From IMG/VR virus record IMGVR_UViG_3300045747_000505: a DNA stretch of 64,000 bases; one strand, 5' to 3'. The DNA is from a virus (Duplodnaviria > Caudoviricetes). This document shows, piece after piece, positions 33,219 through 64,000 of the stretch (its first letter is position 1; every line of letters begins with the position of its first letter). The position numbers were made by a program, and so were the translations under genes. The notes below the pieces were generated by a model, which saw nothing but the letters and a program-made list of their open reading frames with translations, made no database searches and was not told where the DNA came from.

Positions 33219-34139
33219 ATGGCAATCAAAAAAGTTTGGGTCGAGCGCTATCGGCCGAAGTCTGTTGCGGACATCATCATGCCGAACGAGCGTCTGCGCA
33301 AGACGTTCGACGCTTGGGTCGCTCAAGGTGAGTTCCCAAACATTCTGCTGTACGGCGGCCCCGGCACTGGCAAGACCTCGCTGAGTCTGGCGCTGCTCCG
33401 CGACATCGGCGTTCAGAAGCAGGACACGCTGCGCATCAACTGCTCGGACGAGAAGATCGACGCGCTGCGCGACAAGGTCAAGGGCTTCGCAACCACGATG
33501 CCGATCGGCAACTTCAAGGTCGTTCGCCTTGAAGAGTTCGACTACCTCAATCACGACGCTCAGGCTTTGCTGCGAGCTCTAATGGAGGACGTGAGTGACA
33601 CGTGCCGCTTCATTGCCACGTGCAATTACATCGGCAAGCTGACACCACCGCTGCGCTCGCGCTTTCAAGAGTTTCAGATTGCCGCACCGGGTCGTGAGGA
33701 CTCGCTCGTGCTGGCTGCAGAGATTCTCGAAGCCGAGGGCATTGCGTTCGAGCTCGATGACGTCGAGAAGGTCGTGGCCGCTGCGTACCCTGACCTGCGC
33801 AAGATGATTCAGCTGCTCGATGGCAACTCCATCGACGGCAGGCTCGACCTCGCCAACGCAGCAAGCGTCGCGGACTGGAAGCTCGAGTTGTTGCCAGCGC
33901 TCGAAGCCAGCGACCTCAAGGCTGCTCGCAAGATCGTGTGCGAGTCCGCCACCATCGAAGAGCTGCAGGACGTCTTTCGCTTTCTCTACGACAACCTTCA
34001 CCGCGTCAAGCGGTTGACCAAGAACCTCGACGACGCGATCGTGCTGCTCGCCGAGTATCAGTACAAGCACGCCTTCGCTGCGGACAAGGAAATCAACACC
34101 GCGGCGCTGTTCATCGAACTCAACAACCTGACCAAGTGA
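33219..34139 (+). CDS. clamp loader AAA+ subunit (T4 gp44/RFC-like)
   Basis: WVERYRP, GGPGTGKT, INCSD, LEEFDYL, TCNY, LRSR. Confidence 0.93.
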   Translation: MAIKKVWVERYRPKSVADIIMPNERLRKTFDAWVAQGEFPNILLYGGPGTGKTSLSLALLRDIGVQKQDTLRINCSDEKIDALRDKVKGFATTMPIGNFKVVRLEEFDYLNHDAQALLRALMEDVSDTCRFIATCNYIGKLTPPLRSRFQEFQIAAPGREDSLVLAAEILEAEGIAFELDDVEKVVAAAYPDLRKMIQLLDGNSIDGRLDLANAASVADWKLELLPALEASDLKAARKIVCESATIEELQDVFRFLYDNLHRVKRLTKNLDDAIVLLAEYQYKHAFAADKEINTAALFIELNNLTK

Positions 34140-48128: not shown

Positions 48129-49538
48129 ATGCAAACGGAGATCACAATGACTGATGCACTCAATGCCCAACTCGCCGACGCGCTCACCACGCTCGGCGCC
48201 GCCATGGAAGAACGCAACCTTCGCCAACTGGTTAGCGTCCGCACCATCGACCGTCTCGAACCCATCGAAGGCGCCGACCTGATCGAGCTCGCCGTGATCG
48301 GTGGCTGGAAGGTCGTTGTCAAGCGTGGTGAGTTTCAACCGCTCGACCAGTGCGTCTACTTCGAGATCGACTGCTTCCTCCCCGATGGCAATCCGGCCTG
48401 GCAATTCCTGGTCGACAAGTCCAGCCGCCTGTTTCAAGGCGTCAAGGGTCACAAGTTGCGCACCATCAAGCTGCGCGGCCAGATCAGTCAGGGCCTGATC
48501 CTGCCGATCGACGCTCTGCCGGTCGTTGCCTACGTTGCGGCCACCGGCGCCGTTGGCCGCAAGCACCTCGGTGCCATGCTGACCGACGAAGTTCGCAACG
48601 AGGCTGACACGCTCTGCCAAGTCATCGGCATGAAGGACGACGAAGGTGTCGAGACCGAGGTCACCGACTTCGACTTCGCCAGCCTGCTCGGTGTCGTCAA
48701 GTGGGAAGCCGAGCTGCCCGCCTGCCTGGCTGGTCAAGCTCAAGGTCTGTTCCCGAGCTTCATTCGCAAGACCGATCAAGAGCGCTGCCAGAACCTGGTT
48801 GGCGAGATCTTCGGCTACGATGACCGGCTGGTTCCGTTCGACGTCACGCCGCTGATCCCTGAAGCGCTGGCTGCTCTGCAAGAGCAAGGCATTCTGAAGC
48901 AGGTCGATGGCGAGTGGTTCAAGCTCCTGAAGGCCAAGGCCGACCGTGACGCTCGCTACGAGATCACGATGAAGCTCGACGGCAGCAGCACGACGTTCTT
49001 CCACCGCGACGGCGAGGTCGGTGTTTGCAGCCGCAACCTGCAGCTCAAGATCAGCGAAGAGAACGCCGAGAACAGCTTCGTTCGCATGCTGTTCGACAGC
49101 GGCCTGAACTGGGCTCTGCCGACGCTCGGCAACGTCGCCATTCAAGGCGAGCTGATGGGTCCTGGCATTCAAGGCAACCGTGAGAACCTGAAGCAGTTCG
49201 AGTTCTTCGTGTTCGACGTGCAGCTGATCGACGAAGGTCGCTTCATGACCGCCGACGAACGGATGGCGCTGATGAACCAGCTGGCTCGAATTGGCGTCAA
49301 CATGGGCATCGTCCATCACGCTCCGGTGTTCGACGGCAAGAAGTTCGTCAGCGACTTCATCACGCCGACCTTCACGCTGGACGAGCTGGGCATCACCGAT
49401 GTCGCTGGACTGCTGAAGTTCGTCGAAGGTCCGAGCCTGAACCACGCCATCCGTGAAGGTGACGTCTTCAAGCGCGACGACGGCAAGTTCAGCTTCAAGG
49501 GAATCAACAACCTGTTCCTGGCCAAGGAGAAGGAATGA
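48129..49538 (+). CDS. RNA ligase, DRB0094/Rnl5 family
   Basis: RQLVSVR..I.PIEGAD.IE..GGWKVVV, KLRGQISQGL, KTDQERCQN, KLDGSS, QGE.MGPGIQGN, FVFD, EG.VFK. Confidence 0.92.
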   Translation: MQTEITMTDALNAQLADALTTLGAAMEERNLRQLVSVRTIDRLEPIEGADLIELAVIGGWKVVVKRGEFQPLDQCVYFEIDCFLPDGNPAWQFLVDKSSRLFQGVKGHKLRTIKLRGQISQGLILPIDALPVVAYVAATGAVGRKHLGAMLTDEVRNEADTLCQVIGMKDDEGVETEVTDFDFASLLGVVKWEAELPACLAGQAQGLFPSFIRKTDQERCQNLVGEIFGYDDRLVPFDVTPLIPEALAALQEQGILKQVDGEWFKLLKAKADRDARYEITMKLDGSSTTFFHRDGEVGVCSRNLQLKISEENAENSFVRMLFDSGLNWALPTLGNVAIQGELMGPGIQGNRENLKQFEFFVFDVQLIDEGRFMTADERMALMNQLARIGVNMGIVHHAPVFDGKKFVSDFITPTFTLDELGITDVAGLLKFVEGPSLNHAIREGDVFKRDDGKFSFKGINNLFLAKEKE

Positions 49539-50246: not shown

Positions 50247-50630
50247 ATGGCACGCTCCAATCTCACCGTCGCGCAGAAGGTCGTTGTCGTGGCGGCGATC
50301 GTCACGGTGTTTCTCACGCTGTTCGGCTGGTTCGTTCTTTGGTGGGATGGTATCTTCACCGGACTGAACCACTTCGGTCTGCCGTGGTGGGCAGCGCTGC
50401 TCTGTCTCATCGTGCTCTTTGTTCTGCTACCACGCCTCACAAGCTTCTGTTGCATGCTGCTTGGCGTCTGGACCGCCTACGTCCTTTGGGACTGGTGGTT
50501 CATCTTCGCGGTCTCGCTCTACATGCCAACCATCGCGACCTTCATTAAAGGTCTCGTCTTCAGTCTCATTGTCGCAGTCTTTGAAGTACTGCTAACCGTC
50601 GTGACCATCGTCTTTGGAAACAAATCATGA
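50247..50630 (+). CDS. multi-pass membrane protein
   Basis: Mostly hydrophobic, about 4 TMs. Confidence 0.65.
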   Translation: MARSNLTVAQKVVVVAAIVTVFLTLFGWFVLWWDGIFTGLNHFGLPWWAALLCLIVLFVLLPRLTSFCCMLLGVWTAYVLWDWWFIFAVSLYMPTIATFIKGLVFSLIVAVFEVLLTVVTIVFGNKS

Positions 50631-51766
50631 TCAATCAACTGCTTCTCTGGTTCGCGCTGCTGCCGATCGGGCTTGGCGTCGCCATCTGGTACTTCCTGCG
50701 TGGGCAAGACACTCGCTACACCGGACCACGCTCGATCTACTTCGGCGCCGCCTTCGCCTTCGTCGGCGTGCTGATCTCGGCTGGAGCCTTCTACGGCTCG
50801 AGCGCCGCAGCCACTGCCGACACTGAAATCTGGAACGGGCAGGTCACCGGTAAGGACCGTGAGCACGGCACCTACGAGCAGCCGTACTCGTGCAACTGTC
50901 GAACCGTGACGACCGGGTCCGGCAACAATCAAACGTCCACGACCGTGTGCGACACCTGCTATGAGACGCACTACACCGTCAAGTGGACGTGCAACTCCAC
51001 CATCGGCGGCTTCACCATCGATAGCAAGGACTCGACGTCGAGCAGCGTCTATCGCTCAGCGGACCCGAGCTTCTACGTGCAAGCGCAGCCCGGCGACCCG
51101 GCAGCCAAGACGCACACGTACACCAACTACGTGCAAGCCGTGCCTGAGAGCCTGTTCAAGCCGTCGCCAGCAGCCCTCAAGGCGAAGTTCGCAGGGCTCG
51201 TCCCGGCCTATCCGGATCAGATCTTCAACTTCTACAACATCAATCGCTTTCTGACGCCGGGCTACTCGACCCCTGACGCAGCGGCTTGGAACCGTGACAT
51301 CAGTCTGATGCTGCGCGAGCTCGGTCCCAAGAAGCAAGTCAACCTCATCGTGGTCGTCGCCAAGACGGCGGACATGGACTATGAGTACGCTCTGCGAGAT
51401 GCGTGGGAAGGCGTCAACAAGAACGACGTCGTCGTCCTCATCGGCAGCGCAGCGTGGCCCAAGATCGACTACGTTCGAGTGCTGAGCTGGACTAAGAAGG
51501 AGATCTTCAAGATCGAGCTGCGCGATTCAATTCAAGCTCTCAACACGATTCAGCGCGAACCCATTCTGAACCTGATCAGCGCACAGATCAACAAGAACTT
51601 CGAACGGCGCCACATGAGCGAGTTCAAGTACCTCGAAGCCGAGATCGATCCTCCGACGTGGCTGCTGATTCTGCTAGCGGTCAGCCTGATCCTCTCAGCC
51701 GGTGGTATCGCTGCTGCCGAGCTCGGAATGTTCGCCAAGAAGAAGTCTAGGTTCGGACGCTACTGA
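50627..51766 (+). CDS. membrane protein with Cys-rich periplasmic insert and TPM-like domain
   Basis: Two N-terminal TMs, CNC...CDTC...C, alpha/beta domain (VNLIVVV, NDVVVLIG), C-terminal TM. Confidence 0.7.
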   Translation: MINQLLLWFALLPIGLGVAIWYFLRGQDTRYTGPRSIYFGAAFAFVGVLISAGAFYGSSAAATADTEIWNGQVTGKDREHGTYEQPYSCNCRTVTTGSGNNQTSTTVCDTCYETHYTVKWTCNSTIGGFTIDSKDSTSSSVYRSADPSFYVQAQPGDPAAKTHTYTNYVQAVPESLFKPSPAALKAKFAGLVPAYPDQIFNFYNINRFLTPGYSTPDAAAWNRDISLMLRELGPKKQVNLIVVVAKTADMDYEYALRDAWEGVNKNDVVVLIGSAAWPKIDYVRVLSWTKKEIFKIELRDSIQALNTIQREPILNLISAQINKNFERRHMSEFKYLEAEIDPPTWLLILLAVSLILSAGGIAAAELGMFAKKKSRFGRY

Positions 51767-51849
51767 ACCTGAAAAGAGCGAACCTGAGGGTTCGCTTACC
51801 AACTATAATCGCATCTGTTCTATCAACCCTCCACACCACCGGAGTCCAA

Positions 51850-52413
51850 ATGAAAGCTTCCAACGTCATCGTCATCGCCACCGTCGGTGCCATCGCTCTC
51901 GTCGGCATCGCCACCTACGTCTCCAACGCGAACCTCGGCAATCGCCTCGAGGTCTCCATCAAGGCCAAGTACGCCGACAACGAGAACGTCTACGCGCAAG
52001 GCACGCAGAAGGTCATCGAGATCGCGCAAGTGCCCGAGATGTACCGTGATGACGTCAGCAAGGTCACCCGCGACGCCATCGGCGGCCGCTACGGTGAAGG
52101 CGGCTCGAAGGCCGTTTTCCAGATGCTGCGTGAGCAGAACCCGCAGCTCGACGCCAGCATGTACAAAGCCATTCAACAGGCCATCGAAGCGTTCCGCAAC
52201 GAGTTCAGGAACTCGCAGACCGAGCTGCTCGACAAGTGCCGCAACTACGAGACGCTGCGCGGCAACGTGTGGTCTGGCATGTGGCTGAGCATCGCCGGCT
52301 ACCCGAAGCAGGACATCAACAAGATGTGCACCATCGTGTCGACCGCCAAGGCCGCCGCGACCTTCGAGTCCAAGCGCGACACCGGCATCACCCTTCGTCC
52401 GGCCCCGAAGTGA
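51850..52413 (+). CDS. membrane-anchored helical protein (LemA-like)
   Basis: N-terminal TM, helical soluble domain, W..IAGYP. Confidence 0.6.
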   Translation: MKASNVIVIATVGAIALVGIATYVSNANLGNRLEVSIKAKYADNENVYAQGTQKVIEIAQVPEMYRDDVSKVTRDAIGGRYGEGGSKAVFQMLREQNPQLDASMYKAIQQAIEAFRNEFRNSQTELLDKCRNYETLRGNVWSGMWLSIAGYPKQDINKMCTIVSTAKAAATFESKRDTGITLRPAPK

Positions 52414-52511
52414 GCAAGCAGCAGGGCTCGACCCTGCTCGACCTGGTCATCTGGGTTGTGCTCGGTCTGATTCTCTACCTCGCGATCATCGAGCCAACCC
52501 TTCACCCCTAA
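52410..52511 (+). CDS. 33-aa single-TM peptide
   Basis: GTGA coupling; hydrophobic core. Confidence 0.4.
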   Translation: MSKQQGSTLLDLVIWVVLGLILYLAIIEPTLHP

Positions 52512-52523
52512 GGACATCATCAC

Positions 52524-53171
52524 ATGTGGTCATCAATCAAAGGCGCCATCTTCGAAGCCGATCCGGCCGAAGCCACCAAGGCAGCGCCCGCACCGGCTGG
52601 ACAAGCCAAGCCAGCCATCACTGGCGCTCCCATCGCCATCTCGGCCGGCGTCAATCAAGACATGGTCGGCGCGATCAAGAAGGTCACGCTCTCTCGCAAC
52701 TCGGCCTACACTCGCCTGCTTCAAGCAGCCGAAGCGCTGGCTGACGTCATTCCCGACGCCGTGATGCGCCTCAAGGCCGCGCACAAGACCGGCGGTGCTG
52801 GCGCCACTGGGCAGCAGATCGGTGCCGCAGTCGACATTCACCTGCAGGACGTCGATGCCGAGGTTGGTCGCTTCAAGGCCAGCGTCGAGGGCAAGATCAA
52901 GTCCGAGGTCGGTCAGCTCGAGAACGAAGTGCAGATGGCTGCCGCAGGCATCACGACTGCCAACTCGCAGATCGAAGCCGCACGCAAGCGCATCATCGAG
53001 CTCGAAGACGCCATTCGCGACCTCAACGCCAAGGGCGCCGCAGCGCAAGCCAGCGCGCTCACAACCCGCGCTCAGTACGAGAACGCGATCAACGAGTTCA
53101 CCACGGCCGCTGCCACAGTTCGCGATGAGCTGAACGCCAGCAAGGCCGCCATTCTTTCCACCCTCAAGTAA
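52524..53171 (+). CDS. coiled-coil hypothetical protein
   Basis: AAGGA RBS; long heptad C-terminal half. Confidence 0.75.
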   Translation: MWSSIKGAIFEADPAEATKAAPAPAGQAKPAITGAPIAISAGVNQDMVGAIKKVTLSRNSAYTRLLQAAEALADVIPDAVMRLKAAHKTGGAGATGQQIGAAVDIHLQDVDAEVGRFKASVEGKIKSEVGQLENEVQMAAAGITTANSQIEAARKRIIELEDAIRDLNAKGAAAQASALTTRAQYENAINEFTTAAATVRDELNASKAAILSTLK

Positions 53172-53183
53172 GGACAATCCACC

Positions 53184-54209
53184 GTGTCAGACCTCAATCA
53201 AAAGATGAAGTCCTTCTGGGAACGCCCAGAAGGCAACACCGGCATGATCGTGCTGGCGCTTGGCGCCGCCGGTCTCTGGTTCGCCAAGGACGCGCTGCTC
53301 AGCGGCGTGACCACGCTGCGCTCGCTCGTCAACGAGACGATCTTCCTCACCATCAGCGGCGTGGCTCTGTTCCTGCTGCTCAACATCATCTTCAACCCGC
53401 GGGTGCAGAACCTCGTCACCTACGGCTTCAAGTCGATCATGCGCCTGATCACGCAGGCCTTCGTCGAGATCGATCCGATCGGCATCATGAGGTCCTACGT
53501 CGATCGCATGAAGGACAAGCGCGAGGTCATGAGCACGCTGCGTGACAAGTTGAAGGGTCAGCTCCGAATCATCGAGCAGAAGATCAAGGACAACTCGACT
53601 GGCTACGACAACGCCATGCGCATGGTCAAGGTCGCCAAGGAGCAGGGCAAGACCGCAGCGCTGACCGTGCAGTCCCGTCAAGCTGGCCGGCTCGAGAAGC
53701 TGAACGCCGAGACCTATCTGCCCCTCAGGGCTCAGATGGAAGCGCACCTTCGTGCCGCCAACAAGTACCATGAGGTGACCGGCATCGTCATCGAGGACCT
53801 GGAGAACGAGGTCACCGCTCAGTCTGATCGTCGCAAGATGATGACCGCCTCCTACGGTGTGATGAAGGCTGCCAAGTCGATCATGTCCAGCGGCGGCACC
53901 GAGCGCGAGCTGTTCGACCAAGCCATGGAGTACGTGGTCGAGGACTACGGCATGAAGCTCGGCGAGATCGAGCAGTTCATCGAGAACTCGCAGCCCTTCG
54001 TCGACGGTCTCGACATGCAGAACGGCATGTACGAAGCCTCGGCCCTCGAACGTCTTCAGGCCTGGGAAGCCAAGGCCGATGGCATTCTGCTCTCGCCGAA
54101 GGACAAGCAGCAGCTGCAGCTCGAGAACGCTCCGACCGCAGCGACCTTCAACTTCGCCATCGGCAACCCGGCAGCCGTCGACTACGACGCGCTCATTCGC
54201 AAGCAGTAA
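53184..54209 (+). CDS. TM-anchored long coiled-coil protein (PspA/IM30-like)
   Basis: Two N-terminal TMs then about 250 aa helical; DPI.I....V..M motif. Confidence 0.7.
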   Translation: MSDLNQKMKSFWERPEGNTGMIVLALGAAGLWFAKDALLSGVTTLRSLVNETIFLTISGVALFLLLNIIFNPRVQNLVTYGFKSIMRLITQAFVEIDPIGIMRSYVDRMKDKREVMSTLRDKLKGQLRIIEQKIKDNSTGYDNAMRMVKVAKEQGKTAALTVQSRQAGRLEKLNAETYLPLRAQMEAHLRAANKYHEVTGIVIEDLENEVTAQSDRRKMMTASYGVMKAAKSIMSSGGTERELFDQAMEYVVEDYGMKLGEIEQFIENSQPFVDGLDMQNGMYEASALERLQAWEAKADGILLSPKDKQQLQLENAPTAATFNFAIGNPAAVDYDALIRKQ

Positions 54210-54246
54210 CACGGTGGAACCAACGGCTACGGCCGTTGGAGTGGCG

Positions 54247-54272
54247 GGGACGAGATCGAAAGGTCTCGTCCC
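54247..54272 (+). terminator. hairpin with GAAA loop after PspA-like gene
   Basis: GGGACGAGATC-GAAA-GGTCTCGTCCC. Confidence 0.6.
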
Positions 54273-54283
54273 TTGTTGCGTTG

Positions 54284-54329
54284 TGAACCTAGAACAAGTC
54301 AACACAACTTTTCGCCTTCAAGCTATAAT
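54284..54329 (+). promoter_or_regulatory. TGAACC-N34-TATAAT promoter of PBP-OmpA gene
   Basis: TGAACC starts 40 nt before -10 box, as at 9471, 51764 and 57475. Confidence 0.6.
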
Positions 54330-54385
54330 GTCTTCACGCTCTTCAAGAGCGAGCTGACCATCTCAACCGCAACTCAAGGAAACAA

Positions 54386-56080
54386 ATGCTGTCACGTATG
54401 AAACCCCTCCCGAAGGCCATTCTGCTCGCGCTCGTCGTGGGTGGTGCCGTCTTCGCCTACAAGCAATTCGCTGGTGACTACTTCAAGCCGAAGGCTGAGG
54501 TCGCCGTGGCCGTGCCCGACAAGATCGATCTGCCGACCGCCGTCGCTGGTGCTGCAACCTCGACCACGATCGGCGCCACGCCGGTGACGAGCGCCGAACC
54601 GATTCGCGCTGACATTCTGGCGTGGAACGCTCAGATGGGCCTGCCCTACGCCAATGGTGGTGTCACGACCGCCGCTGGCTCGCTGATGGCCAAGCGCGGT
54701 CTGACCGTGACGCTCACGCGTCAGGACATGTACGACCAGATGCAATCCAACCTGGCCGCCTACGCCAAGGACCCGAAGACCGGCACGCAGATCGCCGTGA
54801 TCATGGGCGACGGCTATCCGGCCTTCGCCATCGGTGCGAACACCGCGCTGAAGCCGTTCAATCAGAACGTCGTCGTCATCGGCTCGCTCGGCTACAGCCG
54901 TGGTGAGGACAAGTGCGTGGTCGACGACAAGCTGTCGAGCTTGCGTGGTGCCGTTGTCGCTGGCGTGCTCGGCGATGGTGACATCAACATCTGCATCAAG
55001 AAGGCTGCCGACGACGGCATTGCCGTGAACTCCAACCCGAAGACCTACGACCCGGCCGCGCTCAACTTCGTCGGCACCAAGGACTTCGTCGAAGCCGACG
55101 AGAAGTTCATCGCTGGCTACTGTGAAGACCGCAAGAACACCGTCACCGGCAAGTCTGGCAACGTGTGCGTGAACGGCTCGGCCACGTGGACGCCTGGCGA
55201 CGTGAAGCTCGCGACCAAGCGTGGTCACATCAAGGTCATGGCCTCCACGAAGGAATACGCTTGGCAGATGCCGGCGACGATCATCGCCAACAAGCAGTGG
55301 GCAGCCGCTCACGCTGATCAGGTCAAGGCGTTCCTCGCCGCGGCCCTCGAAGGTGGTGAGATCGTTCGCAGCAACCCCGCCGAGCTGCTCAAGGGTGCTG
55401 CAGTCAGTGCCGCCGTGTACAAGGAAGAAGCCGCAGCCTACTGGGCGAAGTACTACACCGGCGTCGTCGAGATGGACAAGACTGGCAACCAGATCTTCCT
55501 CGGTGGTTCGACCTCCAGCGGTCTGGCTGACAATGCGTTCCTCTTCGGTCTGAACGGCAACGACAACCTGTACAAGAAGGTCTACACGGTCTATGGCAAC
55601 ATCGCCGTCAAGTACTTCCCCGACGTGATGCCTGGTGGTCTGCGTGACTACGACTCAGTCGTCGACACGAGCTACCTGCAAGCGCTGCTCGGTGCCTCCA
55701 CGGCTCTGGCTGCTCCGCAGACTCCGTCGTTCGGTGGTCAGACGACTGGCACCTTCGCCGCTCGGACCTACGCCATCGAGTTCGACACTGGCAAGGCGAC
55801 CTTCACGCCGAAGACCGTGGCCGTGCTCAACACCGTGCTGGACAACGCTGCGGTCACCGCGCTGAACGTCCAGATCAATGGTCACACCGACTCGGTCGGC
55901 GACCCGACCAGCAATCTGGCCCTGTCCAAGGCTCGTGCCGAGGCCGTCAAGAACTTCCTGATGACCAACGCTCCGAAGAACTTCCCGGCAGAGCGCGTCA
56001 CGACCCGTGGCTTCGGCGACACGATGCCGATCGGCACCAACGCTCAGAACCGCCGCGTTGAAATCGTCTTCCTCAAGTAA
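54386..56080 (+). CDS. periplasmic substrate-binding protein fused to C-terminal OmpA-like peptidoglycan-binding domain
   Basis: Signal anchor, type-2 PBP-like body, GHTDSVG...NLALSKARAEAV...GFG...NRRVEI. Confidence 0.88.
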   Translation: MLSRMKPLPKAILLALVVGGAVFAYKQFAGDYFKPKAEVAVAVPDKIDLPTAVAGAATSTTIGATPVTSAEPIRADILAWNAQMGLPYANGGVTTAAGSLMAKRGLTVTLTRQDMYDQMQSNLAAYAKDPKTGTQIAVIMGDGYPAFAIGANTALKPFNQNVVVIGSLGYSRGEDKCVVDDKLSSLRGAVVAGVLGDGDINICIKKAADDGIAVNSNPKTYDPAALNFVGTKDFVEADEKFIAGYCEDRKNTVTGKSGNVCVNGSATWTPGDVKLATKRGHIKVMASTKEYAWQMPATIIANKQWAAAHADQVKAFLAAALEGGEIVRSNPAELLKGAAVSAAVYKEEAAAYWAKYYTGVVEMDKTGNQIFLGGSTSSGLADNAFLFGLNGNDNLYKKVYTVYGNIAVKYFPDVMPGGLRDYDSVVDTSYLQALLGASTALAAPQTPSFGGQTTGTFAARTYAIEFDTGKATFTPKTVAVLNTVLDNAAVTALNVQINGHTDSVGDPTSNLALSKARAEAVKNFLMTNAPKNFPAERVTTRGFGDTMPIGTNAQNRRVEIVFLK

Positions 56081-56090
56081 GACGTGACAC

Positions 56091-56114
56091 GAGGCAGCGC
56101 AAGCTGCCTCCTTT
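56091..56114 (+). terminator. hairpin with GCAA loop after PBP-OmpA gene
   Basis: GAGGCAGC-GCAA-GCTGCCTC followed by CTTT. Confidence 0.6.
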
Positions 56115-56152
56115 CAAAAGAACCTGCTCAGGTTCTTCTAAAAGGAGCTCCA

Positions 56153-56320
56153 ATGTTCACGCTCATGATCATCTACTCAGCATCGACGCAAGGTGCTATG
56201 ACCAGTCAGCTGAAGGACTTCGCCACCAAGGATGAAGCTGATGCGGTGGCTGCTAGCCTCAGAGAGCGAGCCAACCAAATCGCCGGCTACCTCACGATCA
56301 TCAAGCTCTACGAAGTATGA
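56153..56320 (+). CDS. hypothetical protein
   Basis: AAAGGAG RBS before ATG; coupled to permease. Confidence 0.55.
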   Translation: MFTLMIIYSASTQGAMTSQLKDFATKDEADAVAASLRERANQIAGYLTIIKLYEV

Positions 56321-57090
56321 GCTCACTCTTCACGCCATTCAGTCTGGGGCGGCGCTTCAGCGTCAAGTTCCTTGCGGCCGGTCAGCTAGTCATTCTACTT
56401 GCTCTCTGGTTCGTCGCCCCAGCCTCTTCAGGCATTCCAAACCCGCTCGACATCGCGAGCTCTTGGAATGACCTTGCTCTGCACAGCGGGCTGCTCGTCG
56501 AGCTCGGCAACTCGGCGCTCGTCATCGCCGAAGCCATCGTGCTGTCGACGGTCATTGCGCTGACGCTCGCCTACCTCGGCACCGCAGACATCTTCAAGGC
56601 CGCTGGCTCGCTCACATCAGCACTTCGCTTTCTCGGCTTCGCTGGTCTCACGTATCTCTTCACGCTGTGGACTAGCAACGGTCATCAGCTCAAGCTCTCG
56701 CTGCTGACCTTTGGCATGACGGTCTTTCTGGCTCGCTCGGCCATTGACATCGTCAACTCCATTCAGCCGAGTGAGGTCGACTACGGTCGCAGCCTCGGGC
56801 TCAGCGGTTGGGGTCTGACTTGGGAGCTGGCCGTTCGTGGTCGTCTGCACGACATGCTCGACCTCATTCGTCAGAACGCTGCGGTTGGTTGGACGCTGCT
56901 CGCCATGGTCGAGGGCATCACTCGCAGTCAAGGTGGCATCGGTGGCATGCTCCTCAATCAGAACAAGGCCTTCAACCTCTCGGCCGTCTTCGCCATTCAA
57001 CTGACCATTCTTGCCTACGGCATTCTTCAAGACGTGGCGCTGGCCTACGCTCGCACCGTTGTCTGCCCATACCTCAACACTCACAAGTAA
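56317..57090 (+). CDS. ABC transporter permease (SsuC/TauC-like)
   Basis: About 6 TMs; EAA-like loop EVDYGRSLG.SGW; GWT....E....GGIG. Confidence 0.88.
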   Translation: MSSLFTPFSLGRRFSVKFLAAGQLVILLALWFVAPASSGIPNPLDIASSWNDLALHSGLLVELGNSALVIAEAIVLSTVIALTLAYLGTADIFKAAGSLTSALRFLGFAGLTYLFTLWTSNGHQLKLSLLTFGMTVFLARSAIDIVNSIQPSEVDYGRSLGLSGWGLTWELAVRGRLHDMLDLIRQNAAVGWTLLAMVEGITRSQGGIGGMLLNQNKAFNLSAVFAIQLTILAYGILQDVALAYARTVVCPYLNTHK

Positions 57091-57098
57091 GGACCGCC

Positions 57099-57470
57099 AT
57101 GTTCCCAGACGACGCATTTGAATACGCCCAGGTCGCCGCCAAGACCATTCCCGCCGCCAAGTCAATCAACGAACCCTACTCGCCAGCCGACGCCGCAGCG
57201 GCCAAGACATCGGCCATTCCGCCGGTGGTGTTCGCCGTCATCAACGAGCTGCTCGCCACGCACGTCTCCAATGGTCGTGCGACCTTCAAGCAGTCCGACA
57301 TCATCGAGGGCGTCAGAACTCGCACGGGGGAGCCCTTTCAGCACCAGTGGTTGTCGTTCGCAGATGTCTATAAGGCGCGGGGCTGGCACGTCTCCAGCGA
57401 CGTTCCTGGTTACAACGAGAGCTATCCGGCGCTGTACACGTTCTCCGACGCTTCACGCTGGGCATCGTAA
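57099..57470 (+). CDS. conserved phage hypothetical protein, paralog 1
   Basis: AIP..V...NELL...GW.V..D.PGYNESY...YTF. Confidence 0.7.
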   Translation: MFPDDAFEYAQVAAKTIPAAKSINEPYSPADAAAAKTSAIPPVVFAVINELLATHVSNGRATFKQSDIIEGVRTRTGEPFQHQWLSFADVYKARGWHVSSDVPGYNESYPALYTFSDASRWAS

Positions 57471-57557
57471 CGCTTGAACCTAGGTTTGGCGAACCTAAGC
57501 AGGCGACGGTGGAGTATGATGGCACTACCAACTCCACTTCACCGTCGAAAGCACACC

Positions 57558-57881
57558 ATGGCAGTCAAGCCCCTTTCACCTGCTGAAATCGTCGCCAAGC
57601 GCGTCGCCGCCATTCCCGACGGCATCATCACCGAGCTCAACGAGTTCCTTGTTCAGGCGTACAAGCCTGGCCAGTCAGTCGCGATTCACTTCGGCTTGCT
57701 GAACAAGTGGCTGACCGCCGAGAACATGCACAATGGGCAGTCCGCCATGCGCGAGACCATCGTCGACCTGTTCCGCGACGCGTGGATCGTCACCGAGCGC
57801 ATCGCCGACGCGAACGAGGACTTCGAGCCGTACTACACCTTCGCCGCGCCGACCCCGCATCGCAACGCCGAGCGGGACTAA
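57558..57881 (+). CDS. conserved phage hypothetical protein, paralog 2
   Basis: PLSPAE...AIP.....NE.L...W.V....NE.F.P.YTF. Confidence 0.65.
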   Translation: MAVKPLSPAEIVAKRVAAIPDGIITELNEFLVQAYKPGQSVAIHFGLLNKWLTAENMHNGQSAMRETIVDLFRDAWIVTERIADANEDFEPYYTFAAPTPHRNAERD

Positions 57882-57884
57882 GCG

Positions 57885-58679
57885 ATGCCGCGCACGTACG
57901 CTCGTGCCGAGCGCCTGCTGACCATCGACAAGCTGGACATTCGCTACGGCGCGAAGATCGTGCTGCGCGATGTCAATCTGCACGTCGACAACATCACGCG
58001 CGTCGGCCTCAGTCAAGGTCAGTGCGTCGCGCTGCTCGGCCCGTCGGGCATCGGCAAGACGCAGCTGTTCCGAGCCATCGCTGGCCTTCAACCACCGACT
58101 CAAGGGTCAGTGACGCTGGCCGACGGCAAGCCGGTGATCGCTGGTCAGATCGGCGTTGTGCAGCAAGCCTATCCGCTGCTCGCCCATCGCACGGTCATGG
58201 GCAACCTTCGTCTCGCCGCCGACAAGCACGGCACGCCGCTGGACCAGATCAACCACTACCTCGAGTACTTCGAGCTGGCGGACAAGGTCGACAGCTACCC
58301 GTCGCAGCTCAGCGGTGGTCAACGGCAGCGCATCGCCATCATTCAACAGCTCGTGTGCTCCAATCACATTCTGCTGATGGACGAACCGTTCAGCGGTCTC
58401 GACCCCATCGCCAAGGGCAAGGTCTACGACACCATCACGAAGGTCACCACCGAGCACGAGCTCAACACGGTCATCTTCACCACCCATGACATTGGCTCGG
58501 CCGTTCGGCTGGCCGACGAGCTCTGGGTGCTTGGTCGCCAGCCTGGTCTGCTTGGCGCCACGGTGGTCAAGCGCATTGACCTCATCGCCGCTGGTCTCGC
58601 TTGGGACAAGGGCATCAATCACAACCCGAAGTTCTGGCCGATGGTCAATGAGCTTCACGACCTCTTCAAAACACTATGA
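57885..58679 (+). CDS. ABC transporter ATP-binding subunit (SsuB/TauB-like)
   Basis: GPSGIGKT, Q-loop, LSGGQRQR, LLMDEPFSGLD, TTHD. Confidence 0.95.
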   Translation: MPRTYARAERLLTIDKLDIRYGAKIVLRDVNLHVDNITRVGLSQGQCVALLGPSGIGKTQLFRAIAGLQPPTQGSVTLADGKPVIAGQIGVVQQAYPLLAHRTVMGNLRLAADKHGTPLDQINHYLEYFELADKVDSYPSQLSGGQRQRIAIIQQLVCSNHILLMDEPFSGLDPIAKGKVYDTITKVTTEHELNTVIFTTHDIGSAVRLADELWVLGRQPGLLGATVVKRIDLIAAGLAWDKGINHNPKFWPMVNELHDLFKTL

Positions 58680-59047
58680 CCACCTACGTCATCAAGTACA
58701 AGGATTCGCCAGGCGGTCCAGCCGGTGGCCCGATCAACGTCTACAACCTTGGCAGCGGCTTCGAAGCCACGCTCGAGGAGGCGACGCAGTACACGAACTG
58801 GCACGAGGCCAAGGAGAAGTGCGGCGAGCTCTGCGGCGTCGAGGGCGTCTACGAGTACGAGGTCGAGCTCTCGCGCCTCAAGCTCTCGCAACCGCAGCCG
58901 AACTTCATCACGCGCGAGCAGCTCATCGGCGCCATTCAAGAAGCGACCGACGTCTACAGCTACTACGATGATGAGGGCCACGTCACTCGAACCGTCACGT
59001 ACGTCGACGCGAACCTCCTCATCAAGGCCATTCAGGAGTTGTCATGA
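58676..59047 (+). CDS. hypothetical protein
   Basis: Coupled ORF. Confidence 0.55.
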   Translation: MTTYVIKYKDSPGGPAGGPINVYNLGSGFEATLEEATQYTNWHEAKEKCGELCGVEGVYEYEVELSRLKLSQPQPNFITREQLIGAIQEATDVYSYYDDEGHVTRTVTYVDANLLIKAIQELS

Positions 59048-59271
59048 ACCTCTTCGACCTCTTTGAAGAACTGTGGCCTGGCGAACCGCTTGATGCCTAT
59101 GATGAGCTGCTGTGGCTCACGCCCTACCCATGCGCTGACGTCGCCACCATCGAGCAGCGACTGCGTGAGTTTCGTGCTGCCAACGGCCCGGTCATCGCCA
59201 AAGCCATCAATGTCGGCTACGCTGCGCTGCCAACCAGCATTCATCCCGAACCTAAAAACGACCCGACCTGA
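59044..59271 (+). CDS. hypothetical protein
   Basis: Coupled ORF. Confidence 0.55.
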   Translation: MNLFDLFEELWPGEPLDAYDELLWLTPYPCADVATIEQRLREFRAANGPVIAKAINVGYAALPTSIHPEPKNDPT

Positions 59272-59332
59272 ACCGAAGGTTTGGTTGTACAATGGCTTCA
59301 CCATCCACCCATTCCACCTACCGGAGTTCCAC

Positions 59333-59629
59333 ATGTCCTTTTCCCGTATGAAGCCCCTGCCGAAAGCCCTTCTGCTCGCCGTCCTCGTCGGCGGTGCCGT
59401 CTTCGCCTACAAGACCTTCGTTCCCTCCACGCCCAAGGCCGTCGAGCCTCCGCCGGTCGCTGCCGTTCAAGTGCCGGCCGAAGTGCCCGTCGCCGCACAG
59501 GTCCCTGTCGCCACCGTGCGCAGCACCTCCACCCCTGTCGCTGAACCGCCTGCCGCTCAGGCTCCGGCTCTCACGCCCGCCCCGACCAACGCCGGTCTGG
59601 ACGCCCTCCTCGGCACTGGCAAGAAGTGA
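59333..59629 (+). CDS. signal-anchored Pro/Ala-rich protein sharing its N-terminus with 54386..56080
   Basis: SRMKPLPKA.LLA..VGGAVFAYK duplicated. Confidence 0.75.
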   Translation: MSFSRMKPLPKALLLAVLVGGAVFAYKTFVPSTPKAVEPPPVAAVQVPAEVPVAAQVPVATVRSTSTPVAEPPAAQAPALTPAPTNAGLDALLGTGKK

Positions 59630-60552
59630 ACACCATGCAAGACAAGTACCTCTCTCCGACCCTCGGCGCGGTCGTCATTGCGGTTCTCGCGATGGTTGCC
59701 GTTGACGCCAAGGCGCAGACCGTCATGGGCATCGCCTCGGGCCAGGTCGGCAGCACGACCCACTCGATGATGACCGACGTCGCCAGGGTCTGCCCGAACG
59801 TGAACGTCGTCACCAGCGAAGGCTCGCTCGACAACATCTTCCGCATCTCCAGCGACAAGGCGGTGCAGCTGGGCTACACCCAAGAAGATGCCGCCGTGTA
59901 TCAGAACGGGCAAGACCCCGAGATGATGAAGAAGATTCAGATGCTCTTTCCGCTGTTCAGCGCCGAGATGCACCTGGTCGTTCCCGCAAACAGCAAGATC
60001 AACTCGCTGGCTGATCTGGCCGGCAAGAAGGTCTACGTGTCGGCCGAGGGCACTGGCACCTGGGTTTCGACCGAGGTGATTCGCAAGCTCACTGGCATCG
60101 CGTGGTCTGGCTTCAACATCACCAAGAAGGAAGACGGTCTCAAGGCGATTCAGCAGGGGCTGGTCGATGCTGGCTTCTTCGTCGAGGGTGCACCGGTCAG
60201 CCTGCTCGCGAACGCGCAGGGTATCAAGCTGATTCCGATCAGCCATCCCGCGCTCGACGGCTTCAAGTACTACACCAAGACGATGATCCCGTCGGGTGCT
60301 TACGCGTGGCAGACTGGCACGACGCCGACCTACAAGGTCAAGTTCGCGCTGATGACCTACGCGTTCAAGCAGCAGTACCAAACCGAGATCGGCAGCCTGG
60401 TGTCGTGCATCACGCGCAACATCGGCAAGCTGCAAGCCACCGGCCACGCCAAGTGGCGCAACGTGGACCCGTCCGAGATCGACAAGATCAGCTGGGCGGT
60501 CCATCCCGCGGCTCTGGCCGCGATCAAGCGTGAAACCAAGGGAGGCAAGTGA
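59626..60552 (+). CDS. TAXI-family TRAP solute-binding protein
   Basis: IASGQVGST, SEGSLDNI, QED, LFSAEMHLVV, SLADLAGKKV, GT.VST. Confidence 0.88.
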   Translation: MNTMQDKYLSPTLGAVVIAVLAMVAVDAKAQTVMGIASGQVGSTTHSMMTDVARVCPNVNVVTSEGSLDNIFRISSDKAVQLGYTQEDAAVYQNGQDPEMMKKIQMLFPLFSAEMHLVVPANSKINSLADLAGKKVYVSAEGTGTWVSTEVIRKLTGIAWSGFNITKKEDGLKAIQQGLVDAGFFVEGAPVSLLANAQGIKLIPISHPALDGFKYYTKTMIPSGAYAWQTGTTPTYKVKFALMTYAFKQQYQTEIGSLVSCITRNIGKLQATGHAKWRNVDPSEIDKISWAVHPAALAAIKRETKGGK

Positions 60553-60788
60553 TCATGACCATCCTCTACATCGTTCTCGGCTTCATCGCCGTCATCTGGA
60601 TCGCCGTCACCGGCTTCGCCCTGCTAGTGAACGTCATCACCTCGTCTGGCCAGGCCGGCTTCTGGGCCTCCATGTTCCGCCGCTGCACTCCGATGGAGGT
60701 GGCCCTCATGTCGCCTGGTCTGCTTTGGGTCCTGCCGCTCGCAGCAGCCGCTACCGCCATCCGCGGCATTTCACGGCTGCGCAAGTAA
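60549..60788 (+). CDS. small membrane protein
   Basis: Two TMs. Confidence 0.6.
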   Translation: MIMTILYIVLGFIAVIWIAVTGFALLVNVITSSGQAGFWASMFRRCTPMEVALMSPGLLWVLPLAAAATAIRGISRLRK

Positions 60789-60792
60789 GACG

Positions 60793-61314
60793 ATGGCCAC
60801 GCACCTCATTCCGACCGTCGGCGCCACGTGGACTCGCGCCACCAAGGTCGACGGCCTCAAGGCCAAGCACATGGGCGCTCTGCTGACGGACAACACCGTC
60901 GTCAGCAAGTTCCTCATCGACACGATCGAGGGTGAGGAGCCCATCGAGCCGACGAACATGTTCTGCATCGGCGTGACGAATGATGCGTGGCAGCAGCCGC
61001 CGCGAAAGCTGCTGCGCAAGTACGACGTCATCGACGTCACACCCGACGGTTGGCTCGTCTGCGTACCGAAGCCTGACAACCGCATCGACTACTTCACGCT
61101 CACGCTCGAGCACGTCTCGAAGTTCGTCGACGCTCGCATGGGTGACACGTTCGTCATTCAAGGCATCTACGGCAAGACCATGCCTGGCCTAGGCGAGAAC
61201 ATGCAAGAGCTCGTCATCGGCGATGCCATCTGCCGCCAGGTCAATGAGTTCACCGACCAGTGGGTCGTCGAGAAATCGCTGTTCGCCAGGTCCTACAAAG
61301 ATGTAACGACCTAA
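60793..61314 (+). CDS. hypothetical protein
   Basis: Coupled ORF, codon bias. Confidence 0.65.
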   Translation: MATHLIPTVGATWTRATKVDGLKAKHMGALLTDNTVVSKFLIDTIEGEEPIEPTNMFCIGVTNDAWQQPPRKLLRKYDVIDVTPDGWLVCVPKPDNRIDYFTLTLEHVSKFVDARMGDTFVIQGIYGKTMPGLGENMQELVIGDAICRQVNEFTDQWVVEKSLFARSYKDVTT

Positions 61315-61418
61315 CCTAAACTGTTACGCTTTCGACCCAACCAGGATCTCGAAAGCGTGGTATAATCACTCAACGCTCTGAAAGCGCTTTCCATCAACCT
61401 ACCCAAGGAACTTTCCAC

Positions 61419-62078
61419 ATGACCAAAGCCGTCCTCTTCGTTTCGTCCAACATTCAAGCCGCGCTGCTCAACGAGTTCCTGCTCGCCGAGATGCAGGACG
61501 GCTTCTGGCGTGACATGCGTCCCGCCGGCCACGGCGCCGTCTGGGCCGGCGTCTCAGTCATGGTGACGCCCACCGATGCCGTCGGTCCGCTCGGCTTCAC
61601 GCCGTTGAAGAACTACGACTTCCTCAATCCCGAGTTCACCAAGCTGAACGAAGCCAAGCTGGTCGCCATTGCGCAGACCGTCAAACCCAACATGACCTTC
61701 AAGGCCCTGAAGAAGGAGCTCATCGAGCTGGCCCGCATCATCGGCGGTCGCATGACCGACAAGACCAAGGAGCCTGCACGCCTCTTCCGTGGCAACAACC
61801 GCGCCGACTTCGACGTGATCCGCTCGGTCGAACGCCAAAAGGTCGTGACCGTCGCCGGCGCCAAGGCGGCAGTCGATGCCGCTGCCGCTGACGTCAAGAA
61901 GACCGCCGTCAAGAAGAAGACTGAACCCATCGCCGAGCCGGTGGTCGCCGCCAAGAAGACCGCAACCAAGAAGTCCAACAAGGTCAAGCTCGACGTCGAA
62001 GAAGGCGTGACCATCACCGTGACCTCGAGTGGCGCCACCGTTCGCAAGGTCGCCGCCAAGACCACCGCCAAGGCCTGA
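61419..62078 (+). CDS. hypothetical protein with Lys/Ala/Thr-rich basic tail
   Basis: AAGGA RBS; E..DGFW.D.RP..H..W domain; KKTAVKKK...KVAAKTTAKA tail. Confidence 0.75.
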   Translation: MTKAVLFVSSNIQAALLNEFLLAEMQDGFWRDMRPAGHGAVWAGVSVMVTPTDAVGPLGFTPLKNYDFLNPEFTKLNEAKLVAIAQTVKPNMTFKALKKELIELARIIGGRMTDKTKEPARLFRGNNRADFDVIRSVERQKVVTVAGAKAAVDAAAADVKKTAVKKKTEPIAEPVVAAKKTATKKSNKVKLDVEEGVTITVTSSGATVRKVAAKTTAKA

Positions 62079-62081
62079 ACC

Positions 62082-62360
62082 ATGGCAACCCTCACCACGA
62101 CTGTCGAGCTGATGCCGTTCGCCGTACCAGATGGTGTCATTGTCAAGCAGCCGCCACGCAACCGTGGCGATGGTTTCTCACCATTGCCGAAGATGAATCT
62201 GAACCAGCTGGACTACGCGACGCTCGATGCCCTTTGCCGAGAGTGGCGTGCCGAAGTGTTCAGCCGAGCCGGTGTTACCGACAGCGCGCCGTCCGCGACG
62301 CGCTCGGCCTACGTCAACAACTTCTCGCAGTGGGACGACGGCGCCATCGAACCGCGCTGA
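62082..62360 (+). CDS. hypothetical protein
   Basis: Follows previous gene, ends before terminator. Confidence 0.6.
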   Translation: MATLTTTVELMPFAVPDGVIVKQPPRNRGDGFSPLPKMNLNQLDYATLDALCREWRAEVFSRAGVTDSAPSATRSAYVNNFSQWDDGAIEPR

Positions 62361-62379: not shown

Positions 62380-62401
62380 AGGGACCGAACGGTCCCTTTT
62401 T
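62380..62401 (+). terminator. intrinsic terminator
   Basis: AGGGACCGAACGGTCCC followed by TTTTT. Confidence 0.75.

Positions 62402-62593: not shown

Positions 62594-64000
<1,407 letters not shown>

Follow-up and report, generated by a model that had tools for sequence, protein, structure and literature searches.

A bacterial operon type in which a PspA/Snf7-linked ATP-binding cassette (ABC) transporter is encoded together with a PBPB-OmpA fusion protein was described computationally by Ravi et al. (2024, mSystems; PMC11237479), with OGG56892.1 of Candidatus Handelsmanbacteria and AKJ06548.1 of Archangium as examples. That description is comparative genomics only; it proposes the same solute-plus-peptidoglycan reading that we favour below, and the tandem AAA+ ATPase of the published operon is not always present (PMC11237479). 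In huge phages, ABC systems adjoin 15 pspA genes in a set of 189 (Yuan and Chen, bioRxiv 2026-10-24, 10.64898/2026.10.24.761521). Here we describe a related gene set in a tailed-phage record (IMG/VR IMGVR_UViG_3300045747_000505; Duplodnaviria, Caudoviricetes), of which a stretch of 64,000 nucleotides, hereafter the window, was analysed. Positions 52524-58679, which we call module B, are well supported as a phage form of the PspA-linked, wall-tethered ABC module. We think it probable, with some reserve, that this is a bacterial five-gene envelope module borne by a phage and combining an importer with a membrane-stabilising role.

A sequence-only reading of the same DNA had gathered positions 50247-60788 into a single envelope and transport operon. 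Every gene listed in that reading is a real + strand open reading frame (ORF) lying where it had been placed, but the block is two separable modules and not one operon or machine. A pair of genes for a 379-amino-acid (379-aa) membrane protein and a LemA-like protein (module A, described further on) is independent, and several phages with module B do not have it. Module B itself encodes, in order, a coiled-coil protein, a second helical protein resembling PspA, a solute-binding protein fused to an OmpA domain, a permease and an ATPase, and is extended to position 60552 by a small protein made of a transmembrane (TM) segment and a linker and by a TAXI-family protein.

The third gene of module B (54386-56080, + strand) encodes a 564-aa protein with a TM anchor at residues 7-25, a binding domain at about residues 60-450 and an OmpA domain at about residues 460-560. 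The predicted fusion of a binding protein to a peptidoglycan-binding OmpA domain is thus borne out. The OmpA domain matches PF00691 at 60.2 bits against a cut-off of 27.2 and many solved OmpA-like domains with E-values down to 1e-25. Its residues D502 and R517 do not vary among 94 sequences, and we take them to be the peptidoglycan-contacting Asp and Arg of OmpA-like domains. The binding domain is modelled at pLDDT 93 and pTM 0.91, and the best Foldseek matches of the model are TauA (4e-12), SsuA, NrtA, CmpA and Thi5 (4e-12 to 1e-8), with TM-scores by target of 0.74-0.77 to TauA and SsuA. The sequence signal is slight (NMT1 at E 0.003). About 55 positions of this domain, rich in Asp, Asn, Trp and Tyr, form a signature that is conserved across six phyla and phages among the 94 sequences, and this conservation suggests that the binding domains of these phyla and phages share one ligand. 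The binding-OmpA family comprises at least 819 clusters. Tethering of such a protein to the wall had been called unusual, but for this system it is not: the binding domain has 282 bacterial relatives, the 80 loci kept from these include ordinary chromosomes, and the architecture is published (PMC11237479).

The fourth gene (56317-57090, +) encodes a 257-aa ABC permease, probably of the TauC/SsuC type. All of its profile matches are below cut-off (TauC 3.6e-5, 23 bits against a cut-off of 342; SsuC 7e-4; BPD_transp_1 3.3e-3, 17.6 bits against 26.4), and the protein is 60-69% identical in phage relatives. The fifth gene (57885-58679, +) encodes a 264-aa ABC ATPase (PF00005 at 92.7 bits, 3.9e-26) in whose translation the Walker A, signature, Walker B, D-loop and H-loop motifs can all be read, as had been claimed. 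Its nearest named families are importer ATPases, every one below its cut-off. Binding protein, permease and ATPase therefore make a complete importer set, in agreement with the sequence-only reading.

The two genes upstream of the binding protein encode the two long coiled-coil proteins that had been predicted at 52524-53171 and 53184-54209, both on the + strand. In the first, a 215-aa cytoplasmic protein, a short hydrophobic motif at the N terminus is followed by a Pro/Ala linker, then by a small helical domain and a coiled coil; profile searches with it gave generic coiled-coil matches only, and an Atlas search gave unnamed clusters, mostly from Bacteroidota. Its gene lies directly upstream of the second in 12 phage loci and in Burkholderiales chromosomes, and the same architecture recurs in Lak-C1, LR756500, RsoM2USA gp55 and a 243-aa protein of Acidobacteriota. 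The second protein (341 aa) has two TM segments followed by a long cytoplasmic helical hairpin, modelled by AlphaFold2 at about residues 97-235 with a pLDDT of about 90. This family is large, with at least 1801 clusters at 90% identity.

Weak lines of evidence converge on the PspA-like label that the 341-aa protein had been given. The top 14 Foldseek matches of its model are Vipp1, PspA and ESCRT-III proteins (best E 7e-3). With VIA-align, the hairpin superposes best on Vipp1 (Z 12.8, root-mean-square deviation 1.6 A over 134 residues, Vipp1 24-157), and PspA (4whe) gives Z 12.3. A PDB profile search finds CHMP3 at E 0.43, and PF04012 matches below threshold in 8 of 32 relatives, at best with E 0.0044. 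When the family is aligned by hhalign to a PspA encoded in an Acidobacteriota operon with an orthologous binding protein, residues 85-216 fall on residues 8-133, the expected register, at E of about 1e-3, and the conserved Asp-Pro at the start of the hairpin aligns with Asn-Pro of this operon-linked PspA. Similar hhalign comparisons of the 341-aa family with a 301-aa TM protein of Acidobacteriota, and of the coiled-coil family with the 243-aa protein, gave nothing. Membership of the 341-aa protein in the PspA/ESCRT-III superfamily is probable but unproven.

The order of module B is kept in all 12 jumbo-phage relatives from IMG/VR, with 50-68% amino-acid identity for its proteins and 30-45% for the coiled-coil protein. 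The Prevotella Lak megaphage Lak-C1 likewise has the five genes in this order; the 341-aa homologue (E 5e-30), binding-OmpA protein, permease and ATPase were found there. The huge phage LR756500 has five genes in order as well, three matching by sequence and the two for helical proteins by architecture only: homology of its 368-aa and 253-aa proteins to the coiled-coil proteins of the window could not be demonstrated, and only architecture and position agree. A reduced form is found in Ralstonia phage RsoM2USA, whose gp55, gp54, gp53 and gp52 correspond to the coiled-coil protein, the PspA-like protein, an anchor-plus-linker protein and the TAXI protein. Two short contigs binned to Acinetobacter and Pseudobdellovibrionaceae metagenome-assembled genomes (MAGs; L018 and L019) fall inside the phage clade of the tree described below, and L019 carries the 379-aa/LemA-like pair; both are probably phage fragments, and their host labels are therefore not to be trusted.

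Bacterial copies were sought by scanning one genome per prokaryote species with the binding domain, which confirmed the 282 relatives mentioned above, and 80 loci were kept. Among these loci, the full five-gene set was detected mostly in Burkholderiales contigs; the five genes are contiguous there and in Serratia microhaemolytica, and carriers include chromosomes of Undibacterium, Massilia, Collimonas, Caballeronia and others. In Undibacterium sp. TJN19, the module resides on a 1.8-Mb contig amid ordinary genes and adjoins a divergent pair of kinase and regulator genes, and a copy in a Massilia-like MAG likewise has cellular flanks. The histidine kinase and OmpR-type regulator occur beside the bacterial module in two arrangements, the other being a downstream pair in other genera. 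In three Undibacterium genomes one KdpD-domain protein is encoded beside kdpA, and the kinase next to the module is another, separate one (L098 4952-7915 in TJN19); the bacterial module is probably controlled by a sensor of the envelope- or osmotic-stress type. In Acidobacteriota the order is 243-aa protein, PF04012 PspA, binding-OmpA protein, permease, ATPase, 301-aa TM protein and AAA ATPase, such that a bona fide PF04012 PspA fills the slot directly before the orthologous binding protein. The sequence-only reading had proposed a gene-neighbourhood comparison, with ter/telA stress loci in mind; the order of the module is kept in phages and bacteria, and the only recurrent neighbour in the bacterial flanks that were read in detail is the two-component system. 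Close copies of the module are also carried by contigs binned to candidate phyla radiation MAGs (Paceibacterota, Lloydbacteria and Saccharimonadales; L052, L053, L056 and L060), that of L060 being nearly identical to a Terriglobia copy; these copies could reflect mis-binning, phage contigs or transfer.

In a maximum-likelihood tree of 90 binding proteins, from which four duplicate loci were left out, the phage proteins form one clade with 100% support in the Shimodaira-Hasegawa-like approximate likelihood ratio test (SH-aLRT). This clade is sister to Massilia-type bacterial copies (95%), inside a Pseudomonadota clade (99%). Because the phage clade is nested among Burkholderiales-type copies, an old capture from a host is indicated. 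The tree is rooted on LR756500, a very long branch, and we therefore infer the direction of transfer without regarding it as proven. With that qualification, it is well supported that module B was captured long ago from a Burkholderiales-type host and was inherited vertically in a clade of jumbo phages. The impression that the block is domesticated and not freshly captured holds up, given the order kept in 12 jumbo-phage contigs and the single, fully supported phage clade.

The phage copy carries additions. A 308-aa protein of the TAXI family (59626-60552, +) has a signal peptide, passes the NCBIfam cut-off for TIGR02122 (107.1 bits against 84.35) and matches PF16868 at 1.7e-17, so that the TAXI receptor that had been predicted is real. 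It is 50-54% identical in phage relatives and 42% in RsoM2USA gp52. Within 8 kb of the bacterial module copies, no TAXI gene was found (tblastn, E 1e-5). The absence of a TRAP membrane partner, noted in the sequence-only reading, extends to five related phage genomes, three of them at least 94% complete: PF06808 gave no match at E <= 1 in any of them, although controls matched, and there is no DctQM-type membrane component in the window's neighbourhood of the TAXI gene. Immediately before the TAXI gene, whose start its stop codon overlaps, a 98-aa "headless anchor" protein is encoded (59333-59629, +), with one TM segment and a Pro/Ala linker. Positions 59341-59420 of this gene align with positions 54391-54470 of the binding-OmpA gene over 80 nucleotides (nt) with 12 mismatches (about 85% DNA identity; 22 of 26 residues), and on this alignment the 5' end of the anchor gene is a partial copy of the opening 26 codons of the binding-OmpA gene. 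Relatives of the anchor protein precede TAXI in five loci, and RsoM2USA gp53 has the same anchor-plus-linker design.

Small phage hypotheticals are interleaved with these genes on the + strand, as had been reported. A 78-aa ORF (56084-56320), with a weak relative in two loci only, lies between the binding protein and the permease, and two ORFs of 121 and 135 aa (57105-57881) lie between permease and ATPase. The first of these (57105-57470) is kept in that position in seven related loci; no gene separates the permease from the ATPase in the Burkholderiales, Acidobacteriota and Myxococcota loci that were inspected closely. Two translationally coupled ORFs of 123 and 75 aa (58676-59271) follow the ATPase. 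In all, seven small hypotheticals occur among or just after the genes of the block.

The block is a single run of + strand genes, and candidate promoters divide it. Direct counting finds TATAAT 12 times on the + strand of the window and twice on the - strand, and four of these sites are in intergenic gaps in or near the block (51804, 54324, 61361 and 62529). These TATAAT boxes are candidates for the phage-type promoters that had been claimed; a generic sigma-70 scan found no promoter. At eight + strand sites (9797, 12066, 28994, 36842, 39885, 43046, 46695 and 61361), all just upstream of a gene start, TATAAT is preceded by GTTACA about 31-32 nt upstream; the box is GTTACG at 61361, and 36842 and 46695 fit the spacing less well. 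The sites at 51804 and 54324 have no GTTACA box. A 9-bp hairpin at 51776-51797 (+; -13.9 kcal/mol, z -4.5) is followed by TATAAT at 51804-51809, and 51776-51809 is likely a unit boundary and promoter. A 12-bp hairpin at 54246-54273 (+; -23.5 kcal/mol, z -3.8) is followed by a weak U tract and then by TATAAT at 54324-54329. With these two hairpin-TATAAT pairs, the block likely comprises at least three transcription units. A stable hairpin also precedes the TATAAT at 61361, and a terminator-like hairpin with a U tract resides at 62380-62397. From these hairpins and TATAAT sites we derive likely units that extend up to 51766, from 51850 to 54209, from 54386 to 61314 and from 61419 to 62360. The second likely comprises the LemA-like gene and both helical genes, and the third the transporter genes and TAXI.

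The sequence-only reading had suggested envelope maintenance, import or the sensing of envelope breaches as possible functions. If the reading that we favour is right, expression of the module would be driven by the phage's own TATAAT promoters. The N-terminal helix of the 564-aa protein would hold it in the inner membrane; its TauA/SsuA-type domain would bind a small periplasmic solute and its OmpA domain would grip peptidoglycan, and the solute would be passed to a type I ABC importer of which the 257-aa permease and 264-aa ATPase are the parts. Beside the transporter, on the cytoplasmic side of the membrane, the PspA/ESCRT-III-like protein with its two TM segments and its coiled-coil partner would form a membrane-stabilising or membrane-shaping assembly. 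The inner membrane might thereby be kept sealed, energised and attached to the wall, and the solute supplied, while a very large phage goes through its long infection cycle. For the additions on the phage side, the secreted TAXI protein with the small anchor protein, a role as a second receptor is probable.

Several results weigh against this reading. Many unrelated long helical hairpins score Z 11-12 against the 341-aa model in VIA-align, the hhalign probability of the PspA alignment is only 19-24%, the window protein itself has no PF04012 match, and an Atlas shape search with its model returned generic hairpin proteins only. Moreover, the hairpin follows two TM segments (residues 21-39 and 52-70), whereas in PspA an amphipathic helix occupies this place. 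In the PDB profile search, the sequence of the binding domain matched no solved protein significantly. The module has no AAA+ partner, there being no AAA gene in 50247-62360, and the hairpin at 54246-54273 divides the coiled-coil genes from the transporter genes. Also, the cultured phage RsoM2USA has neither the permease nor the binding-OmpA protein. Import may therefore not be an essential activity of the module, nor its core activity.

Module B could instead be a nutrient-uptake auxiliary gene set, that is, an importer that would feed phage replication with nitrogen, sulfur or carbon in the form of nitrate, a sulfonate or something similar to taurine, with the coiled-coil genes as unrelated neighbours. 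The binding-domain fold, closest to TauA, SsuA, NrtA and CmpA, and a permease nearest TauC and SsuC are what such an importer would have, and the ATPase matches PHROG families filed under auxiliary metabolic genes. However, both coiled-coil genes directly precede the binding-protein gene in carriers as far apart as Lak megaphages and Burkholderiales chromosomes. The bacterial flanks that were read in detail contain no sulfonate, taurine or nitrate enzyme, the two-component system being their only recurrent neighbour, and the conserved Asp/Asn/Trp/Tyr-rich positions were judged unlike an anion pocket. We consider this plain nutrient-uptake reading rather unlikely. A sensing or anchoring device, in which the OmpA-fused receptor and TAXI report a periplasmic ligand or the state of the wall to the ESCRT-III-like protein while the ABC parts serve as regulator or motor, is harder to reconcile with a permease and ATPase that are intact and 56-69% identical across the phage clade, and no output domain is present. 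To our knowledge, characterised transporters with a TauC/SsuC-type permease are importers. RsoM2USA, which keeps the coiled-coil, PspA-like, anchor and TAXI proteins without ABC genes, nonetheless fits such a device, as does TAXI without a TRAP membrane partner in the five related phage genomes. Fixation at the inner membrane as well as at the wall is reminiscent of MotB-type stators. We regard the sensing device as unlikely. In a further proposal, the wall-tethered receptor would fetch no nutrient; it would read the state of the cell wall, for example through a peptidoglycan-derived sugar or amine, and couple this signal to an ESCRT-III-like assembly that repairs the inner membrane. Huge phages might carry it so that infected cells survive breaches of the membrane, whether by pore formers of abortive infection, by superinfecting phages or by holins that leak prematurely. 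This proposal is improbable in our estimation, and we leave it open because of the RsoM2USA form without ABC genes and because the Asp/Asn/Trp/Tyr-rich signature is kept from Acidobacteriota to phages.

Two further explanations were rejected. The block might have been a lysis-timing cassette in which the protein with two TM segments is a holin or antiholin and the coiled-coil protein resembles a spanin, for among 32 relatives of the 341-aa protein nine have sub-threshold matches to PF07332 (Holin-X), and the coiled-coil protein matches a PHROG family of Rz-like spanins at 9.4e-5. These matches extend over nothing but generic TM or coiled-coil stretches, the same genes reside in bacterial chromosomes beside a two-component system and away from prophage genes, and no endolysin gene is adjacent; a lysis role is accordingly very improbable. 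The close bacterial relatives of these genes could also be taken as a sign of an assembly chimera or of host contamination joined to a phage contig. Yet in 12 independent viral contigs, including one with terminal repeats, the module is bordered by phage genes in a constant order, an RNA ligase gene among them, and it is this shared synteny that rules a chimera out. Phage-specific small ORFs occur inside the module, the G+C content of the window is even (55-62%), and the stretch is present in sequencing runs of several pond and wetland studies. We give the chimera essentially no credence.

Module A spans 50247-52413 and has as its core a phrog_2087 membrane protein and a LemA-like protein. The former, of 379 aa (50627-51766, +), matches phrog_2087 at 2.2e-86 and has N- and C-terminal TM segments and a Cys-rich stretch. 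A tblastn search finds relatives of it in 498 phage records, among them Ackermannviridae-type phages, T5-like vibriophages, XacN1 and FLC9, and its Atlas neighbours are viral and without a Pfam family. It had been called TPM-like, a label that finds no support: profile searches against Pfam, NCBIfam and PDB gave no match to the TPM domain (PF04536) even at E up to 10. The LemA-like protein (187 aa; 51850-52413, +) has one N-terminal TM segment and matches phrog_1383, which carries the PHROG annotation "virion structural protein", at 1.1e-65. Its name is suggested by shape, the Atlas model giving TM-scores of 0.57/0.64 to a PF04011 cluster over 141 residues, but not by profile. A Pfam LemA match was obtained in only one of seven relatives (E 0.064), and a six-frame search of five genomes for PF04011 found none. 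PDB profile searches with the two families gave nothing meaningful. In XacN1 and FLC9, the 379-aa gene is followed by the LemA-like gene, and no other gene of the block is present. Conversely, the 379-aa gene is missing in two near-complete relatives of the phage and likewise in RsoM2USA and LR756500, and in Lak-C1 it is about 180 kb from module B. The pair, which occurs in about 500 phage records, is thus an independent and widespread phage membrane module that merely neighbours module B. Between the LemA-like gene and the first gene of module B there is a gap of 110 nt (52414-52523), which is not conserved; it measures 14-30 nt in five of the six related loci in which both genes were called.

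Module A begins with a gene for a 127-aa protein (50247-50630, +) that has about four TM segments in a hydropathy scan and no Pfam or PHROG match, and whose stop overlaps the start of the 379-aa gene. The RNA ligase gene upstream of the block is at 48129-49538 (PF21189, PF09414, phrog_968). At the other end, genes for a 79-aa protein with two TM segments and a 173-aa hypothetical (60549-61314, +) conclude the tightly packed run. They are followed by a gene for a 219-aa protein (61419-62078) with a Lys/Ala-rich tail and no family match, and by a multicopper oxidase gene that starts at 62594. TAXI and the 219-aa gene, the latter with 40-43% identity, come after module B wherever the contig of a related phage continues beyond the ATPase gene. 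At least six membrane proteins had been claimed for the block; a crude hydropathy scan finds TM segments in eight, in addition to the TAXI signal peptide. The nearest AAA gene is for a single-domain ATPase of 306 aa (33219-34139; PF00004 at 2.1e-14) about 19 kb upstream of the module, a distance too great for it to be tied to module B. The best AAA match in each of five related phage genomes is on the same strand, 16-22 kb upstream of the module. A database row places the 564-aa protein on a contig of 273,537 bases. The block has no megablast match among 50,697 phage records, and no RNA dataset is listed with the block or with the binding-protein gene.

This module is among the most widespread unstudied envelope gene sets of very large phages, ranging from gut Lak megaphages to freshwater phages, and it is present in many bacterial species. 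If its role in inner-membrane stabilisation or repair is real, it would represent a general means by which phages with long cycles keep the host cell working, and it would give a first function for a bacterial ESCRT-III-like system that is tied to transport. Culturable carriers are available in Ralstonia phage RsoM2USA and in isolates of Undibacterium, Collimonas, Caballeronia, Massilia, Albitalea and Serratia microhaemolytica.

Several known systems resemble parts of module B. The long hairpin of the 341-aa protein resembles that of helices alpha1 and alpha2/3 in PspA and Vipp1 (IM30) and superposes on Vipp1 at 1.6 A, but two TM helices replace the amphipathic helix alpha0, and there is no match at the level of Pfam. 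With the TauABC, SsuABC and NrtABCD importers (NitT/TauT, TC 3.A.1.16-17), module B has in common the fold of the binding domain, the ATPase type and probably the permease type. However, its binding protein is anchored in the membrane, tethered to the wall and about 100 residues larger, it has a distinct conserved signature, and no catabolic genes are linked to it. Cyanophages supply a periplasmic binding protein, PstS, to the infected cell, and other solute-binding auxiliary genes are borne by phages as well. Unlike such a single receptor for a host transporter, module B provides a whole transporter together with membrane-associated helical proteins.

The closest likeness is to the operon of Ravi et al., in which a binding-OmpA protein with an N-terminal signal or TM segment is likewise encoded next to a permease and an ABC ATPase. 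ESCRT-III-superfamily helical proteins are found in the same gene run there, a slot that may be filled in module B by the upstream protein with two TM segments and a hairpin. The Acidobacteriota operon that contains the orthologous binding protein has exactly the published layout. In contrast, the phage and Burkholderiales form consists of five genes with one two-TM PspA-like protein instead of a soluble PspA and a separate TM-Snf7, and it lacks the tandem (inactive plus active) AAA+ ATPase. The phage copies further add the inserted small ORFs, TAXI and the duplicated anchor. Yuan and Chen's preprint devotes one sentence to ABC adjacency and mentions no OmpA fusion, coiled-coil partner, TAXI or bacterial origin. 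Both the operon type and the adjacency of PspA and ABC genes in huge phages are therefore already known, and the copy in the window is a further phage instance, which adds evidence for capture from a Burkholderiales-type source, a link to a bacterial two-component system, and the TAXI and anchor genes.

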